Below, one piece after another: positions 28,700 to 53,188 of a stretch of 64,000 nucleotides of DNA (position 1 is the stretch's first letter; every line of letters starts with the position of its first letter). The notes below the pieces were generated by a model. It was not told the DNA's origin and ran no database searches. It saw nothing but the letters and a program-made list of their open reading frames with translations. The stretch lies in assembly GCA_964016885.1 (NCBI GenBank), contig OZ024742.1, positions 118,730,001 through 118,794,000 of the forward strand. The letters are read 5' to 3'. The DNA comes from Eledone cirrhosa (taxonomy: Eukaryota). Position numbers and translations under genes: made by a program.

Positions 28700-30950
28700 T
28701 TTATATAGCAGAGGTACCCAGGAATGTCTCCATATTCTTCCAAAGTAACACTATGCAGTAAAGTTGTGACTTCAGAATTCCTTACAAACTATATGACTAA
28801 TGAACTAGGATCTATTGTCATTGAATCAGGAATTACGATATTGCTCATTCCAAAGCCTCTGGATAAACAACATTCTTGTTTTTGCCCTGTGGTGCTACAA
28901 TGAAGAGACAATCAGGCTTTCCAGCCTTTGTAGTACCAACATCGAGCTGATCATGCGAAAAGACAGGATCTGCCAGGTTCAATCCAATGACTTTCAACAA
29001 TTGCCCGAGATTTATTGATGGTCATGGTAAAACTGAGTCTGATAGGAAATTGAAGCCTTTGAAATTCAAATAGCAGAGGTATTCTGGGAATGAAACAATT
29101 ATATAGGACATTGGGCATTATATGTTTGATGATGAGTCTTGTGGCATTGCAAAGTTTTGGAGGATCCAGATTATGAAGTAGCATAACCGATGCTCCAAGA
29201 TTCAATATCAGGTTGTGTAGAAGAGTTCCTGCTACTTCAAGAATGTTTATAAATATTCAGTTGGATAGTTTACAACCTGATCTTGGGAAGTGATTGTGTC
29301 AACTGATTTGTAGCATCTTTTCCCTCCCAGTAACATGTCCAGCAGCCTTCTGTTGATTTCTTTCACATCAACATTTTTTGGGTCTAAGATTGCTTGTTCC
29401 CAGAGACATTTGGGAATATTGTCTGCTCTGAATATTTGGAAACACTCTGGCAATCAGTTCTTGTTCTCTTTCAATGATATGGCCAAATTACAACTGATTT
29501 TGGCTGTTGGAGTCCTTTTCAAGTAGCCCATTTTCCCAATTTAAGTAATTGGATGGCAAACTCACTGACACCTTCGTCACCAGTCAAGTGCACTCGCATA
29601 TTGGTTGTAAAGCTCAGCCACCGAAAGCAGAGCTAGAGATAAAATGTTTTCAGATAGGCATTGACCTGATCAGCTCAGGTCCCTTGGGGAAATTCAGCAG
29701 ATTTTGTCTGAAATCACCACAAGAACCATTGTTACTCATCCCATTCTGCAAGTATTTTCTCTCTGATCTCTTATTGTCCAGGTGAAAAGTTCAATTGCTT
29801 GGTAATGGCTCATGGTAGCTCCATCCCAAATTATCATCTTGCATGTTCACAGAAGCTTGTCCTTGGATGAGTTCTTTTTGATGTTGCAAAAAGATTGTTC
29901 AGGTCATAAGGGCAGCTTAAACATGGAGTGTGCAGTTCTTCCTCTATTCAGAAGTGTTGCTGCAATTCCACTTGAAACCACAACAAGAGCAATATGTTGC
30001 ATTTGGCGAAATTTTGCAAGCAGGTAATTTATGAGGAATATCTTACCTGTGCTAGCAGGAACATCGATGAAGAAAAGTCCTCCGATGTCATTTTGAATGT
30101 TTTCCATGATATTGTGGTAGGCGTATTTTTGGTCATCCACCAATTGAGGTTCATTTTTATCCACAAACTTACGCAAGGCTTGAATATGGTAGTTTGTCTC
30201 CTGAAAAATGTCTTGTACTATCTCCATTTCTTCATCTTGCAGTTAGCTAATGTGTTACTCATTACCTGAACTCAATGGGACAAGTGACTCGAGTGACTGC
30301 TGCTTTTTCTAGGGTTTTCTTCCAATGTCCATTGTCATGCAGGAGTCCATGATATTTACATGCTTCTTGGTATGTTGTGCACATTCTTCTTCCAAAGCAC
30401 CTGAGATCCTCAAATGATGTTGGACCTCGAACAATATGCAGAAGTAGCTGTAAATGAAACCACTCTCTGTTGTTGGGGTAGTCATTGTAAACACGCCCAA
30501 TAGCATCACTTACCTTGACTTCATGACCCTGCTTCCTTCAATTTCAGGTCTTTCAATTGGTCCAGTTGTAGTATGTTGAGATGTCAACATATAGGAGGGA
30601 TCAAACAAATTCATCATTCTGGCAGAGTTTTAAAAATGCAGTTAGAGTAGTCGCAGGTGGTGCTTGTGCCAACTCATGAGTAGTAATATCAGTGAAGTAC
30701 ACTCTCCGTCCATTTTCTAGATGGTTGAGGTTGACCACTATTGGGTGGCGTTGGTGGATATCAAATCCAAAGATCTGCCAGATAGATTTATTGCGGGAGA
30801 TGTATCAAACTGTCTGATACTGTTTGACAATCTTCATTTAGTTATTTGTCAGTAATAAAGGTAGCCATGTCACTGCCCTTGTTGATATATTTTGACATAT
30901 AGTATTGCTTTGAAAGATCTGTAATATTCAAAATTGATATGAGCTTTGAG
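28700..30950 (-). mobile_element. Decayed autonomous Helitron (end of Rep plus PIF1-like helicase)
   Basis: FFIDVPASTGKIFL, SSGIAATLL..GRTAHSMFKLPL, MLLHNLDPPKLCNATRL, RLQFPIRLSFTMTINKS and HINFEY motifs; many frameshifts. Confidence 0.88.
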
Positions 30951-30956
30951 AAGTTT

Positions 30957-32097
30957 AAATTGAGGGTAGGAATGAAGTTTAGAGAGGAATTCCAGATACA
31001 AATAGGAGTACATCAGGGTTCGGTCCTCAGCCCGCTCTTGTTCAGTATAGTCCTCCAAGCCATAACAGAGGAGTTTAAGACTGGCTGCCCATGGGAACTT
31101 CTCTATGCTGATGATCTGGTTCTTATAGCAAAATCAGTAGAGGAGCTAGAGAATAAATTCTGGCTATGGAAACAGCAGTTGGAATTAAGAGGACTGAGAG
31201 TGAACATAGCTAAGACAAAAGTGTTGATAAGTAGAAAAGAGGACAAAACTCTGATTAGGTCAGGGAAATGGCCATGTTCAATATGTAGAAAAGGAACTGG
31301 CATAAATTTTATAAAATATACACAATGCAGATCTTGGGTACACAAGAGATGTAGCGGGATAGCAGGCACAGGGAAAAATATGTATGCAATAGATGTACAG
31401 GGAAATTTGACAGTAGAAGTCGCAGTGATAGACACATTTTTCAAATGCAGGTAGGTTCTATAGAAGTGGTTGATAGCTTCCGGTACCTAGGTGATCAGAT
31501 TAGCATGGGAGGGGGTGTTCCGAGGCCATAGTATCTAGAATAAGGATGGGTTGAAAGAAGTTTAGGGAGCTGCTTCCTCTGCTGACAAAGAAGGGTTTCT
31601 CCCTGCGTACGAAAGGCCGGTTATATGATGCCTGTGTGAGATACGCGATGCTGCATAGTAGTGAGACATGGGCAGCAACTGCAGAGGATATGCGAGAGCT
31701 GGAGAGAAATGAAGCAAGCATGCTCCGTTGGATATGTAATGTCAATGTATGTGAATGACCAAGCATGGATGAGTTGAGAGAGAAACTGTGTATAAGAGGG
31801 ATAAGTTGTAGTGTGCGGGAGAGAAGAATGCGATGGTATGGACATGTGATGCGCCTGGAGGATGACCGCTGGGTAAAGAAGTGTCAAGAAATGCCAGTAA
31901 AAGGAAGACTCAGTAGAGATAGATCACGATAAACATGGGCGGTGATGGTGTGAGCGGACCTCAGATCGCTGAAGCTCACGGAGGAGATGACGAAGGACCA
32001 TGACAAGCGGAGAAATGCTGTGCTGAATAGGACCCGTCCCACCCTTGCAAGCAGGGAAAAGCAGATGTAAAATGATGATGATGATAATGATGATGAC
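30957..32097 (+). mobile_element. 5'-truncated RTE LINE
   Basis: GVHQGSVLSPLLF, LLYADDL and WPCSIC...WVHKRC; in-frame stops; 3' tail CCCTTGCAAGCAGGGAAAAGCAGATGTAAAATGATGATG. Confidence 0.92.
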
Positions 32098-32689: not shown

Positions 32690-32696
<7 letters not shown>

Positions 32697-33145
32697 TAAC
32701 AGATTAAAGTTTAAGCAAAGAATCGCTGCTTTCACTCTTAACGGGATCTTCTGAAACTGACAAAGTCAATCTGTAAACGCAGAAGTGAATATTTCAAAAA
32801 ACGTTGCAACCGGAGGAAGACAGGAAGACGATACTTTGGTTCGCGGAGACGTTCCCTGGCAAAGAACGGGAAAAAACGAATATAATACGTCATTATTTGG
32901 AGCATGTACTGGGTAATTGCTGGCCTTGTGCCTAAAGTAGAAACAATTATTTGGAGCGGTGAAAAACAATTACACGCAAAGACAGAACCACGTTTATGGT
33001 ATAAAAGAAGTCGTAGACTAATCTTCTATTAGGTGGTTCATAGAGACGTTCTCTGGCAATGAACGGAAAAAACGAAGATAATACGTCATATGTGGAGCGT
33101 GGAGAACAATTGCACGCAAAGATAAAACCACGTAAATGGTATTAG
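32690..33145. repeat. Unclassified dispersed repeat (second copy 46441-46692)
   Basis: About 240 bp shared with 46441-46692. This copy has an internal partial duplication and an inserted SINE-tail fragment. Confidence 0.75.
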
Positions 33146-33285
33146 AATTGGTGCTCTGAAATAGCGATATATATATGAATGAATATATAGTGTATTTTGC
33201 AATACACTGTATGCTTAATTAAAAGCATTTTGAAGACCATACGCTATTATTTTAAAGTAGTGACAATATCACTTACTTAAATTTT

Positions 33286-33369
33286 CAGCAAACAGGGGAG
33301 ATAAGCTGACAGAGCTCTGTTTCGTACTTGTTGGTACTTATCAAAGCTCACAACTCTTCCTGTTTGCTG
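33286..33369 (-). ncRNA. Type I hammerhead ribozyme, U3-A8 core variant
   Basis: Minus strand AGCT-TTGATAA-GTAC caacaa GTAC-GAA-ACAGAGCTCTGT-C-AGCT with extended stem I; predicted cut between 33308 and 33307. Confidence 0.8.
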
Positions 33370-33473
33370 AAAATTATGTGTGTTGGATTCTTATAGAATT
33401 CCAGTAATAATCAGGAACTGATTATATAGAGTGGTCGCCGGTCCATCAGAAACTGAAAATTAGAATTGGTGCC

Positions 33474-33556
33474 CAGCAAACAGGAAGAGTAGGAGCTTTG
33501 ATAAGTACCAACAAGTACGAAACAGGGCTCTGTCAGCTTATCTCTCCTATTTGCTG
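33474..33556 (+). ncRNA. Type I hammerhead ribozyme, U3-A8 core variant
   Basis: AGCT-TTGATAA(33498-33504)-GTAC caacaa GTAC-GAA-ACAG ggct CTGT-C(33534)-AGCT; stem I extended by CAGCAAA.AGGA / TCCT.TTTGCTG. Confidence 0.8.
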
Positions 33557-33648
33557 AAAATTTAAGTAAGTAACATTGTCACTACTTTAAAACAATAGAT
33601 ATATTCTTCAAAATGCTTTTAATTAAGCATACAGTGTATTGCAAAATA

Positions 33649-33718
<70 letters not shown>

Positions 33719-33760: not shown

Positions 33761-33876
<116 letters not shown>

Positions 33877-34092
33877 TATTTTGCAATACACTGTATGCTT
33901 AATATATATATATAGTATAACTGAACAAAAAAGAAAAACGAACACAGACATATGCATGTATGCGTTCAAATCGTAATGGACCAGAAACGCTAAGGTGAAA
34001 AAAATACTAACTACAGACAATAGGGTTTGCTAGACTCAATTTAAGAATAAATCAAGAAAAATAAATACAAACCAGTATTGTGGTAACTACCA

Positions 34093-34248: not shown

Positions 34249-34823
34249 ACGGCTCCCATCGGTCACTAATGACCGTGGTTTTGCGCCTAGAAAGTTTCCC
34301 TCTGAGGCACATACTCACCACCATAGGCGATGAGCTGGCCAGCCGCAGTTGTGAGCCCCGCGAGTTGGAGTAGCATTTCCAGCGGTCTCCCTTGCCGTCC
34401 TCCGGAGAAAGGCCATCTCCATTCTGACCGCCGGGGTTGTGGGGGGGGGGGGGGGGGGCATCGCGTATCATTCCACATTTAAGTATGGTCATAAATGCTT
34501 CCCTCTCTCTCACCATGCGTGTAACATTTAAAAAAAAAAAGCCTAGGCGTATTTGTGGAAGCCCTGCAGTCGCCCATGCGTACCAGCACCCCCCTCTACA
34601 CGCCACTGATGTTGTCTATGGAAAAGGTACAACGTCACTGATGCCAAACTGTATCGATACAGTTTGGCATCAGTGACGTTGCAACTCATTTCTACAGCTG
34701 TATAAACTGGAGCAACGTGAAATTACGTGTTTTGCTCAAGGACACAACTCATCACCCGGTCTGAGAATCGAACTCACAACCTTTCAATTGCAAGCCCAAC
34801 GCTCTAACCACTAAGCCATGCGC

Positions 34824-39646: not shown

Positions 39647-41190
<1,544 letters not shown>

Positions 41191-41196
41191 ATATAT

Positions 41197-42662
41197 ATCA
41201 TCATCATCATCATCATCATCATCATTTTACGTCTGCTTTTCCCTGCTTGCAAGGGTTGGACGGGTCCTATTCAGCACAGCATCTCTCCACTTGTCACGGT
41301 CCTTCGTCATCTCCTCGGTGAGCTGAAACTCACCGAGGAGATGACGAAGGACCTCTGCCCATGTTTTACGTGGTCTACCTCTTCTGCGTCTTCCTTCTAC
41401 TGGGATTTCTTGGCACTTTTTTACCCAGCGGCCATCCTCCATGCGCATCATATACCCATACCATCTCAGCCTTCTCTCCTGCACACCACGACTTATCCCT
41501 CTTATACCCAGTTTCTTTCTCAACTCGTTCATGCTTGGTCGTTCATGCACATTGACATTGCACATCCAACGGAGCATACTTGCTTCATTTCTCTCCAGCC
41601 GTCGCATATCCTCTGCAGTTGCCGCCCATGTCTCACTACCATGCAGCATCGTGTATCTCACACAGGCATCATATAACCGTCCTTTCGTACGCAGGGAGAA
41701 ACACTTCTTTGTCAACAAAGGAAGCAGCTCCCTAAACTTCTTCCAACCCGTCCTTGTTCTAGATACTATGGCCACGGATCCCCCCCCCCATGCTAATCTG
41801 ATCTCTTATGTACCGGAAGCTATCAACCACTTCTATAGAACCCACCTGCATTGGAAAAATATGTCTATCACTGCATTTAATACTGCCAACTTTCCCTGTA
41901 CACCTACTGCATACGTAGTTTTCCGTACCTGTTAGTTTGCCTGCTATCCCACTACATCTCTTGTGTACCCAAGATCTGCATTGCGTACATTTTATAGAAT
42001 TTATGCCAGTTCCTTTCCTACATATTGAACAAGGCCATTTCCCTGATGGAATCGGAGTATTGTCCTTTCTTCTACTTATCAACACTTTTGTCTTAGCTAT
42101 GTTCACCCTCAGTCCTCTTGATTCCAACTGCTGTTTCCATAGCCAGAATTTATTCTTTAGCTCCTCTACTGATTCTGCTATAAGAAACAGATCGTCAGCA
42201 TAGAGAAGTTCCCATGGGCATCCAGTTTTAAACTCCTCTGTTATGGCTTGGAGGACTATAATGAACAAGAGCGGGCTGGGAACCGAACCCTGATGTACAC
42301 CTACTTGTATCTGGAAATCCTCACTAAACTCCATACCTACTCTCACTTTACTGACAGCACCCCTGTACATAGCTTGCACTGCCCTCACAAGCCATTCCTC
42401 TACGCCTAGTTTCCTTAGGGACCACCAGATGACAGATCGGGGTACCATATCAAAGGCGTTCTCTAGGTCAATAAAAGCTAAGTATAGTGGCTTATTCTTC
42501 TCTAAGAACTTCTCTTGTAGTTGTCTCACTAAGAAGAGAGCAACTGTTGTACTTTTGCCAGGCACAAAACCAAACTGCATCTCATCTAATTTGACCCTTT
42601 CTCTAATCAGTTGCGCTAATATTCTCTGTGCCACTTTCATGACCTGATCCATCAGCTTTATG

Positions 42663-42667
<5 letters not shown>
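41197..42667 (-). mobile_element. 5'-truncated, relatively young RTE LINE
   Basis: ORFs 41759-42652 and 41227-41775 (one frameshift at a G run) with QFGFVPGKSTT, LYADD and RRLRWYG; (ATG)n tail; same family as 30957-32097. Confidence 0.93.
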
Positions 42668-48811: not shown

Positions 48812-51800
48812 TGTAGCGACGTGGTTGGTCAGTCTAGTCACTACTTCCGATCAGATCCGAGAATAGCCCTTAAAAGAACTGTTATCGCATACGGTCTGAT
48901 CGTATCTGAAGATAGCCCTTAAAAGAACTGTTGTCACATACGGTGAGGATGAACAGACGAAAGCACAATTTGAAAGGACGAGGCAAGGCGAGGGATGTAA
49001 ATTCGATCAGCTATTTATTTTCACATGAAGCGACGATACAAGGTACAAGGCGTGTGTGAGTGACAAAGCGTGGCAGAGGCGAGGAACAACGATACGCGGG
49101 TTGACTCTGCCAAATGTCGACTGGTGAAAGTGTTTTGGATCACTCTATTTATACAGAAATAATCGTTTGATGTTTAGCCGCTGTGTAGGCGTTTATTCTG
49201 ATGGTTTCTAAGTGTTTTGTTTCACGGTGAGGTAGCTAGCTAACAGATAGATGGAGCTGTATATTTCACATGTTATTTCCGGTGGCTGTACATTATCCCA
49301 CTGCCAGATCTTTTGTACAACAAAAAAGCGAAATATCGTATAGTAATGGGCCAGTGGTGCATTTGTCATGACAATAGCCCAAGGAGTGTCCAGCACCTTG
49401 TGAAATTTTGTGATCATCGAGTATAGGACAGAGTCGATGTAGAGATGATATGGCAAGATGTGTGTGTCAGGAAGAGAAAAAAAGAAATAAACTATAAAAT
49501 GATTTTGACCAGATTTATGCAGGCGTGATGAATGAGCCTGTTGCAATTTGGGTTGAGCTGCCTGTGAATTGCGTGACAAAATGTCTAACTGGGCAGTGAA
49601 GATAACCGTAATGTGTGAACTGAATGGCCGTAAGCATGCTGCCTAAAGGTAACAGCTTGCTCCACAGCATATGACTTGAGCGAATGCATGTGGTAAAAAA
49701 ATAGCGAGGCATTCTCGAGCTATTGAGTGAATGTGTACGTGAAAAAAGAAAGCCAGTGTTTTGAGGATGCGATTTGTGAAATGCGTGATCAAAGAGAAAA
49801 CATTTTGTAGTGTAAGAGTTAGAGGGACACAAATATCTATTGCTCCGTGTATGAACCAAAAGGTGAAACAAACGTGGTTTTGTAGTGTGCATGAAAAACA
49901 GAATATGTACACGCCTTGTATGTATATAAAAATTATGCAAATTACACAATCAATGTTACAGAACAAGAAAAATAAAAATTTTTGCAAAACAAGAGAGAGA
50001 AGAAAAAAAATGATATACACAATGTTTGTTCTTAAATAGTGTTTGTAATAGATAATGCTCATAATAAATAATGTTCTTCGTGACATGAGCACATGGTCAC
50101 TAAAAATTGCAATTGTTCAAGCAGAACGTTCATTGTATTTGAAACTGGAAATAGTAAACACAAGAAAAATGGAAATGTTTTGCACGAAGAATGATTAAGA
50201 AACTCACTTGAGGTTAATGGTAATTCACATATTGTGCCAACTTGGCGGGCCAATGGACGCGTCGTCCACTTCTCGTGACTGGAGATGAAACAGGTGGCTC
50301 GCTGGGACAGCAATCTGTTGGAGTTTCTGGTGTAGAGACTGTAACAGTATCCATGGTGGCTTTTTTTAATCTGTCTACGCTGACAGAATTCTGTTTACCA
50401 TCTAGATCGAGAATAAAATATTTCGGATATTTTTTTAGAACACGATAAGGGCCAGAATATGGAGGTCGAAGATGAGCTGAGATGGTGTCGTTTCGAACGA
50501 AAACGTGTGTCCAATCATCAATGTCTGAAGGTACGTGTGTGGCCGTGTTCTGTTGACGGGTGCTTGCCGGAGCAAGGTGAGACATATATTGTCGAAGACG
50601 GTGTACGTATGATCCTGGGTCTGGAACATCCTGAGGAGAGATGGGAGCAACCATCTGACCAGGTAGAACCAGGGTGGTGCCGTACACTAATTCTGCAGGT
50701 GTGTGTCCGAATTCCTCCTTAACGGTGGATCGAATGCCCAGAAGGATGAGTGGTAGGTATTCAAACCAGTGTGTCTTGTCTGGATATGCTTTTATTGCAG
50801 CTTTCAATTGGCGATGGAATCTTTCCACGAGACCATTAGCTTGCGGGTGATAAGCTGTCGTGCGGATGTTTACATCCTAACAGGCGAGTCAGTTCTCTGA
50901 AGAGGTGAGAGTCAAATTGGCGTCCTCTGTCCGTTGTTATCTTCGCTGGGGCGCCATAACGTAATACCCAGTGTAAAACCAAAGTTTTAGCGACTATTTC
51001 CGCTGAGGTATCATTTATGGGAAAAGCCTCAGGCCAACGAGAAAATCGATCTATGCAGGTGAGCAAGTGTGTGTAGTTCTGTGATGGTGGTAGAGGTCCG
51101 ACGATGTCGATATGCACATGATGAAAACGTGCATCAGGTTGCGCGAATGTGCCGAGTGGAGTTTTGATGTGTCCGTGGACTTTGGCTTTCTGGCAGGCAA
51201 TGCAGCTCCTGGACCAGTCGCGCACGTCCTTGTTAATGTTAGTCCACATAAAATGAGCAGAGATGAGTTTCTGTGTAGCCCGGATTCCCGGGTGCGACAA
51301 GCAGTGTAAAGCAGAAATAACTTGACGATGCATCTGTGGTACGTACGGTCGTTCATGACCGGTAGAAAAGTCGCACCAAATTTGTCCCGGAGAAGAAGGA
51401 ATGGGAACTTGCTGAAACTTGAGGGATGGCGAATCTCGGAGCTTGATAAACTCTTCGTCAGTCTCTTGGTCAGCTGCGATCTGTTGACAGTCGATGCCTG
51501 AATGCACATGTATTGTGTTCAGCTGGGTTCGGGACAGGGCGTCGGCTGCTACGTTGTCTGATCCCTTGATATGCCGAATATCAGTTGAATATTGGGAGAC
51601 AAAATCCAGGTGTCGGAGTTCTCTCGGTGAATGTCGATCAGGTTTGGTACGGAACGCATAAACTAGTGGTTTATGGTCCGTGTAGATCACGAAATCTGAT
51701 CCTTCGAGCAAGTGCCGAAAATGCTTAACCGAAAGATAGGTTGCCAAGAGTTCGCGGCCAAAGGTACTGTATTTCGTTTCTGCCGGTTGCAACCGCTTAG

Positions 51801-52770
51801 AAAAGAAGGATAAGGGGTTGCCACACGCCGTCGACATGTTGTTGTAAAATGCCTCCAACCCCCGTATCTGATGCGTCCACTATCAGCGAAAGAGGAGCGC
51901 CAGACCTGGGGAAAACGAGCATGGAGTGATCTCTTCGTTTTTGCGAGTCCGGTTACGAAGAAGGTCCGTGAGGAGTCTGGCTGCGTCGGAACAATGAGAG
52001 ATAAAACGCCTATAAAAAATCACCAGACCGAGGAATTCACGCAGTTTCCGAAGTGATGTAGGTGCGGGAAAACTGCGGATAGCTTCTACTTTCTCGGGAA
52101 GTGGACAAATGCCGTCTTTATCGATGATGTGCCCGAGAAAGGACAGTGAAGGAACGCCGAGAAGACACTTGTTGGGGTTGATGATGATACCGTACTCAGC
52201 GAAACGTTGGAAAAGGAGATCTAAGTGCTTCTCGTGTTCTTGCTCGGAAGTACTTGCTACCAGCACGTCGTCAATATACGCGTATACGAAGGGTAGATCG
52301 CGTAACACGGTGTCAATAAACCGCTGAAAAGTTTGTGCAGCGTTGCGCAGACCGAACGGCATTCGCAGGAATTCGAATAAACCGAACGGTGTTGTGATTG
52401 CGGTCTTCGGAATATCTGCAGGCTCCACAGGTATCTGGTTATATGCACGCACCAAATCTATCTTGGAAAAGATGCGTGCGCCTTGCAGAGAGGCAGAAAA
52501 AGCGTGCAGGTGAGGTACAGGGTAATTATCGGGCACTGTAGAATTGTTAAGTGCACGATAATCCCCACATGGTCGCCAATCATTCTCGGTTTTGTTAGGA
52601 ACAAGGTGTAGGGGTGCAGACCAGTTGCTGGAGGAAGGGCGAATGATTCCGAGGTCCAGCATGTGTTGGAAGTCCTGCTTGGCGATTCTCAATCGGTCTG
52701 GAGGCAGTCTCCTTGGTCGGGCAGCTGTGGGTGGTCCCCTTGTCTCGATGTGGTGCGTGACACTATGCTT
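48812..52770 (-). mobile_element. 5'-truncated Ty3/Gypsy LTR retrotransposon with 3' LTR (~48812-49292)
   Basis: RT ([16 protein letters not shown]), RNase H ([16 protein letters not shown]) and integrase (HPGI, CIAC, HIDIVGP, TTDRG, VERFHR) at 50214-52770, with frameshifts. The LTR has TG...CA ends, with TATAAA (~49150) then AATAAA (~49017) on the minus strand. Confidence 0.92.
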
Positions 52771-53188
52771 AATAGGACCATCCTTCTATTTCTAATTCTT
52801 CATTTATTATATATATCCTATTTGCAACAACACAGCTCGCCATTTTTCATTCATATATTTTTCATTCTTTCTAAGAGATTCACGAGCGAAAGGTCTGTTT
52901 TTCTGACTCGCTCATATATTCACACAGCTTATGCTGAAAGAATAACTATGTTGCTTGTGTTTATTTCCATCTTCGGTTAGCTTCCCCCTGTGTTGTTTAC
53001 TTGTCTCACTCGCTTTACGCGTTTCTATTGTCCTAATAACTTATTTTAGTTATTATCGCTCCAACGTGAGGTATATGATTTTTAATGCGATGAAATACCC
53101 ATGATCGTTTGGTAAATCACTGATGAGGGACTCATTTTATAACATGTTATCCATGTGCAACCAACAGTTTTCTTCTCACCCATATTTT

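Follow-up and report, generated by a model that had tools for sequence, protein, structure and literature searches.

A two-armed (TA)n insertion of a non-coding 318-nt hammerhead retrozyme in Eledone cirrhosa, likely made by a Penelope-like enzyme

The stretch of DNA analysed here, which we call the window, comprises 64,000 nucleotides (G000:C3:118730001-118794000) of a eukaryotic assembly of 3.0 Gb, and is full of TA/CA microsatellites and retroelement fragments. The locus under study consists of one complete 318-nt monomer on the minus strand (33141-33472), standing head-to-head with a 5'-truncated piece on the plus strand (33474-33656). Its features, together with a related fragment nearby, are as follows (window coordinates; PLE, Penelope-like element):

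33141..33472, minus strand: left arm, a complete 318-nt retrozyme unit and a terminally redundant 14 nt (33459-33472 recurs as 33141-33154), delimited by direct repeat D13 and by mapping
33141..33166, minus strand: unique part of the PLE-type tail (long 3' end), monomer positions 307-332, found at one end only; the locus (L008) is scored long/short
33189..33208, minus strand: sub-terminal hairpin, adjoining the short 3' end point on its 5' side; mirrored on the plus strand at 33633-33652
33286..33369, minus strand: left type I hammerhead, core UUGAUAA at 33344..33338, predicted cut after 33308
33370..33472, minus strand: part of the monomer 5' of the left ribozyme, with two small hairpins; called a spacer in an earlier, sequence-only reading
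33474..33656, plus strand: right arm, a 5'-truncated unit starting from monomer position 104, whose short 3' end enters (TA)n; the head-to-head join is at 33473
33474..33556, plus strand: right type I hammerhead, core UUGAUAA at 33498-33504, predicted cut after 33534
33652..33712, no strand: (TA)n microsatellite, the likely target site; TA runs also flank most ends in the family
33851..33903, minus strand: separate, heavily 5'-truncated 3'-end fragment of the same retrozyme family (direct repeat D4), inside a (CA)n(TA)n tract 200 bp from the main locus

Direct repeat D13 recurs in the window at a spacing of 318 nt, i.e., the left arm and the supposed spacer are one monomer. The 185-bp inverted repeat, which the sequence-only reading took for the element itself, is a by-product of the insertion of this 318-nt tandem unit, and the left arm runs on to 33141. 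The two arms are 93.5% identical (12 of 185 columns differ), and their identical cores between diverged flanks had been regarded as a sign of conservation; all 12 differences would miss the 25-nt core block by chance with a probability of 0.17, and this argument is therefore dropped. The long end of the locus does not enter a TA run, unlike the short end. No target-site duplication was seen by eye at the locus, where the (TA)n flanks obscure such duplications; in non-LTR retrozymes these, when present, exceed 4 bp.

Several other sequences of the window were recorded. Another repeat (32690-33140), with an internal duplication at a spacing of ~196 nt (D8-D10), adjoins the long end, and its first bases also come after (TA)n in L055, L066 and L085. 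A near-perfect palindrome of ~80 nt lies at 34611-34702, and a weak tRNA-like match (27.6 bits versus 29), possibly the head of a SINE, at 34761-34818. Fragments at 30903-31454, 41227-42664 and 50214-52785 are putatively assigned, by their motifs, to RTE-like LINE reverse transcriptase and Gypsy-like pol.

As had been proposed, all parts of a type I hammerhead ribozyme can be located in each arm: the core UUGAUAA, stem II GUAC/GUAC with the loop CAACAA, GAAA, a stem III of 4 bp, the GUC site, and a stem I that is extended and bulged. As to a loop 1-loop 2 tertiary contact, loop 2 (CAA..A) and the bulge in stem I may resemble the Schistosoma motif. Each arm matches the type I hammerhead pattern and is predicted to be self-cutting. 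Two observations count against the interpretation given below. In secondary-structure energies calculated without tertiary contacts, the hammerhead fold in the two arms lies 5.4 and 6.0 kcal/mol above the minimum-energy alternative, in which the 5' strand of stem I and the core pair with stem III, and it lies 1.5-6.0 kcal/mol above the competitor in 8 of 8 modelled copies; in addition, a strict pattern of an intact ribozyme is matched by 40 of 74 sampled ribozymes. An obligatory dimer was also considered, and is unsupported: stem III has 4 bp, and its palindromic loop is lost in sister subfamilies.

The covariation looked for in other copies is present. Among 25 hand-picked, related ribozyme rows, the stems are paired in 94.3% of cells, compared to 25-46% in slid controls, and changes on both sides were found in 11 of 22 pairs, with stems I and II covarying across subfamilies. 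The 3-8 pair in these hand-picked ribozymes is CG in 12, UA in 11 and other in 2. Core mismatch among copies is low (3 of 514 cells); this was not taken as selection because of post-insertion decay, the AT-rich core and the choice of half of the loci by core similarity. Rfam produced only weak HH9 matches on the two arms (18.8 and 18.6 bits versus a cut-off of 52; E 0.79 and 0.94) and, at the gathering score, no matches in 20 loci, 10 of them canonical C3-G8. It had been suggested that CUGANGA scans miss such a variant; indeed, CUGANGA-only descriptors would miss >90% of the cores counted in the clade, but the Rfam cut-off also misses the canonical C3-G8 sisters, and the U3-A8 variant is thus not the sole reason why the family escapes scans.

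The retrozyme repeat occurs well over a thousand times in the genome. Two DNA searches of the same genome (best 40 of 1769 and best 40 of 524 candidates) gave 60 loci, and mapping to the window minus strand 33155-33472 as a reference revealed a circularly permuted unit of ~318 nt. Altogether, 104 retrozyme loci were fetched and 17 overlapping or duplicate ones dropped, leaving 87 for analysis; these were picked by best similarity or first exact pattern match and are not a random sample. The next unit follows 42 of 178 sub-terminal anchors (39 of the 87 loci), and two same-strand ribozymes are 307-330 nt apart in 14 of the 87 loci. The unit is non-coding, with no reading frame of >47 codons even when doubled. 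Cut-to-cut monomers have a GC content of 34-35%, and in four of five loci tried the predicted circular folds are branched, 59-65% paired, with z from -6.0 to -7.4, none of 100 shuffles being as stable; one locus was unparsed. The family accordingly has several of the properties by which a retrozyme is recognised, i.e., a tandem unit of 150-450 bp with one type I hammerhead, non-coding, with GC below 50% and a predicted stable circle. Contigs from three sequencing runs of a single sample, of unrecorded kind, span the stretch, with a 318-nt back-joint in two of the three; they were not counted as support because they may derive from the assembly's own sample.

The copies have a median end branch of 2.5% and mostly private differences, indicating that the family is recent, though not necessarily active today. 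At G000:C2:338330094-338463079 the same C3-G8 core recurs four times at ~44-kb spacing, and L042 and L043 are near-identical inverted duplicates; segmental duplication and assembly redundancy are alternative explanations of both.

The metazoan non-LTR retrozymes described in two reports have units of 220-245 nt in coral, 350-390 nt in mussel and 330/350 nt in axolotl (Cervera and de la Pena 2020, PMC7229834; Li, Clavereau and Pollet 2026, bioRxiv 10.64898/2026.07.22.740005). The present family resembles them in its tandem unit, which is short, non-coding and low in GC and bears a single type I hammerhead, in its dispersed monomers and oligomers, in its stable predicted circle and in the co-existence of PLEs. 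It differs from them, as there described, in that the dominant core is U3-A8, and in that the copies are mostly of 1-3 units, divergent and two-armed, with a one-sided PLE tail.

The window copy itself is probably an inert insertion product rather than a source, and was likely dead from the moment of its insertion. Each strand bears a single ribozyme, which makes the release of a monomer impossible, and a transcript across the locus is predicted to form an arm-arm hairpin of -295 kcal/mol that buries the ribozyme. Two or more consecutive ribozyme-bearing units, which define an ‘active’ locus according to Li 2026, are absent from the window locus and present in 14 of 87 other loci.

The ends of the copies are informative as to how they were inserted. 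PLE insertions are described as containing partial tandems, an inverted 5'-truncated copy and a tail of 30-40 bp, often at one end only (Craig 2021, PMC8557442); the tail corresponds to the distance between two internal start sites of the reverse transcriptase (RT), and is said to be unique to PLEs (Frangieh 2024, PMC11167929). Across our loci, 5' ends are scattered along the unit, whereas 3' ends cluster at two fixed points: 75 are short and follow the sub-terminal hairpin, 60 are long and lie ~26-35 nt further, and one is intermediate. Junctions in the 87 loci are head-to-head in 62 cases versus one tail-to-tail. TA runs follow the long end in 53 of 60 cases and the short end in 58 of 75. 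Among 46 divergent pairs with both ends scored, 42, including the window locus, combine a long and a short end, compared to three short/short and one long/long (p 2e-9). Rare variants are common to 42 of 128 segment pairs within one locus (12% of variants) and to 487 of 7667 segment pairs between different loci (1.6%), i.e., sharing is 7.5 times higher within loci, as is expected if both arms share one template.

The insertions thus display 5' truncation, partial tandems, an inverted 5' copy, a tail at one end and a microsatellite or AT-rich target, all of which are also described for EN+ PLEs (PMC8557442; PAc, PMC11167929). In contrast to EN+ PLEs as presented in these sources, there is no RT-EN ORF here, the tail measures ~26-35 nt versus 30-40 bp, and extended homology to the two autonomous families examined is lacking. 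The proposal that the locus belongs to a non-autonomous PLE/retrozyme-like family is therefore sustained by a non-coding 318-nt tandem unit with a PLE insertion footprint. In the 2026 preprint, animal retrozymes are argued to be non-autonomous PLE derivatives (10.64898/2026.07.22.740005).

We conclude, with a probability of roughly 0.7, that the locus is a two-armed insertion into (TA)n of a non-coding 318-nt retrozyme unit with a U3-A8 type I hammerhead, likely produced by a PLE RT/endonuclease. Under the mechanism that we propose, tandem source loci would be transcribed, consecutive hammerheads would release monomers, and a host ligase would seal these into circles, as in the retrozymes of coral, mussel and axolotl. 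A PLE protein would then nick both strands of AT-rich DNA, and its RT would start at two internal sites ~30 nt apart. Each start would give a 5'-truncated arm, the two diverging and only one of them bearing the tail, and copying beyond the junction of the circle would yield more than one unit. It should be noted that in Xenopus eight of nine predicted retrozyme dimers were uncleaved and one was cleaved (10.64898/2026.07.22.740005), which counts against this reading.

The same element and PLE enzyme could have operated with an uncut or linear multimeric transcript as the template, without a circle, the ribozyme only trimming the RNA or being assisted by protein; we consider this unlikely. The PLE PAc is reported to use unprocessed RNA, and hammerhead cutting to be dispensable for PLE insertion in vitro (PMC11167929), the latter also counting against the circular template. 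Arms mostly span fewer than two units, and at most ~3 in the loci seen, which suits a linear template as well. In the same direction points the lack of an A>G excess that would mark a single edited RNA template: A>G and T>C changes number 8.5 and 8.7 per 1000, and no signature of RNA editing was found among the copies (Fisher p 0.94). Conversely, with respect to the cut site, both insertion ends lie ~120-170 nt downstream, and arms cross it into further units, so that a cut linear monomer is impossible as a template. The repeated compensatory changes in the core, described below, imply that its pairing mattered, and the rare variants shared within loci fit repeated copying of one template, although a young homogeneous tandem would produce these as well.

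Insertion from a circle by a PLE enzyme leads to the question of a partner. Two PLE families, A and B, were labelled on the basis of RT and cysteine-linker motifs judged by eye. A broken copy of family A lies in the window itself (39750-41190, plus strand), with a cysteine linker and, by eye, a GIY-YIG-like end; it carries a minimal C3-G8 hammerhead at 41071, Pfam reports nothing on it, and the family has 2597 first-look candidates in the genome. Family B (L135-L165) is very abundant, the most so of the autonomous PLEs encountered here, with 13,725 first-look candidates, of which the best 150 were scored, and shows a sub-threshold Pfam match to GIY-YIG (20.6 bits versus 22.6). Its minimal-hammerhead-like motif, recognised by eye, has the core UUGAUAA in 21 of 25 sampled motifs, and exact motif matches in the genome number 1102 for U3-A8 and 0 for C3-G8. 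Short ends of family B read TTCA(TA)n (20 ends), whereas long ends add ~33 nt before (TA)n (5 ends). The unit has no RT + GIY-YIG ORF, and no extended homology was found between it and family A (30 loci) or family B, 3' ends included; the sole real match in the partner search was an unrelated nearby retrozyme copy in L112. Family B shares the end design of the retrozyme, yet without extended homology, and the partnership is therefore a lead only.

The same comparison bears on the idea that the unit is a pseudo-LTR (pLTR) of an autonomous PLE, the copies being truncated, inverted, pLTR-only insertions. All the PLE insertion signatures are compatible with it, opposite-strand hammerhead pairs have been tied to truncated PLEs in Schistosoma (PMC4209133), and the fetched loci extend only ~1.5 kb to either side. 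Nevertheless, arms that extend 5' past one unit always enter another unit, the unit is without homology to the 3' ends of the two PLE families, and its ribozyme is a type I of canonical size, whereas both PLE families carry minimal ones; we regard a pLTR origin as quite improbable. Another candidate, with the 185-bp arms as terminal inverted repeats, is a MITE or a foldback DNA transposon inserted at TA. It is suggested by the look of the window arms with their TA flanks, and is highly improbable: arm lengths vary from ~40 to 960 nt, inner junctions fall anywhere in the unit, the tail makes the two outer ends unequal, and there are also copies with a single arm or in direct tandem, so that this candidate was rejected on its variable inner junctions and unequal ends.

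For the retrozyme core, exact occurrences were counted genome-wide with stem II fixed as GTAC/GTAC, the reversed control being 0 for each pattern. The numbers are 1405 for U3-A8, 106 for C3-G8, 14 for U3-G8 and 12 for C3-A8, the mismatched cores thus amounting to 26 of 1537. The C3-G8 copies represent a sister subfamily, 86-90% identical over the unit, and form a clade with a support of 100/99, although the bootstrap is not fully settled. Single-change cores nest within larger clades, whereas expanded subfamilies are fixed for the double change, as befits the compensatory variant that had been postulated. A distant retrozyme clade (L166-L189), 68-80% identical, with a different stem II and 176 exact marker matches, contains both states as well: 33 segments comprise 11 C-G, 9 U-A, 2 other and 11 unparsed cores, and in its U3-A8 subfamily the base of stem II shows an A-A opposition.

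The commonest changes in the copies are C>T and G>A (~21-22 per 1000 versus ~8.5 for the reverse transitions), and one may ask if U3-A8 is simply the product of mutational decay of a once-canonical ribozyme, with the variant inactive. The greater stability of the competing fold and the A-A opposition in the divergent subfamily would agree with this, but the scarcity of single-change cores and the fixation of the double change make it very improbable.

The history of the U3-A8 retrozyme core was traced in a midpoint-rooted tree of 50 copies (24 of 66 near U3-A8 copies, 10 of 18 near C3-G8 copies, and, from the distant clade, all 16 that are full-length and have a paired core), from which mismatched cores were left out. 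The tree requires two state changes between C3-G8 and U3-A8, and a single U3-A8 clade is rejected both when the core columns are dropped (p-AU 1e-37) and when the whole ribozyme is dropped (p-AU 8e-5). Both switches run from C-G to U-A under the midpoint root, which leaves the direction unproved; it is the direction favoured by the mutation spectrum of the copies. U3-A8 likely arose more than once via U3-G8 or C3-A8, aided by the C>T/G>A bias, and would have been kept because pairing was preserved. Template switching between subfamilies could also contribute to the core pattern. Taken together, the core switches, the stem covariation and the counts suggest that selection probably acted on the source ribozymes to maintain the 3-8 pair.

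The U3-A8 variant is not new, having been published earlier (PMC3088659, PMC4209133). In Perreault 2011 (PMC3088659), natural covariation from C3-G8 to U3-A8 is described in scattered examples, and U3-A8 is stated, with reference to earlier work, to be active in vitro; the natural cases given there are few, whereas here a single lineage contains both states and has switched at least twice. Cervera and de la Pena 2014 (PMC4209133) reported ~1,300 U3-A8 minimal hammerheads tied to Schistosoma PLEs, a number close to that counted here, and the Cercyon PLE of Schistosoma mansoni likewise combines U3-A8 covariation with opposite-strand pairs 100-700 bp apart. According to the same source, the Schistosoma hammerheads are minimal and reside in the pLTRs of coding PLEs, in contrast to the full stem III, extended stem I and non-coding tandem unit found here. 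The locus in itself is unremarkable, since its class, its core variant and pairs of hammerheads on opposite strands have all been reported before. We found no description of the 318-nt family or of a retrozyme tail in the open-access literature, although the supplements of PMC7229834 and the preprint could list it; the family thus appears to be a previously undescribed retrozyme, within the literature searched, of a known class and with a known core variant.

In earlier reports, PLE mobilisation of animal retrozymes has been argued from co-occurrence and pLTR similarity (PMC7229834; 10.64898/2026.07.22.740005). Direct anatomical support for such mobilisation comes from 42 of 46 inverted insertions, in which only one end carries the tail, and family B names a candidate enzyme. 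With sister subfamilies that are 86-90% identical and differ in C3-G8 versus U3-A8, the two cores can be compared in a matched setting. We tentatively suggest, as a possibility that we hold to be rather doubtful, that among actively copied RNA circles the catalytic 3-8 pair switched two or more times between C-G and U-A, with U-A becoming dominant, and that the family B enzyme copied the circle from two start sites, on both strands, at a cut in (TA)n. If this is true, the family would be a natural experiment in the evolution of a ribozyme core, as well as a genomic record of retrozyme mobilisation.
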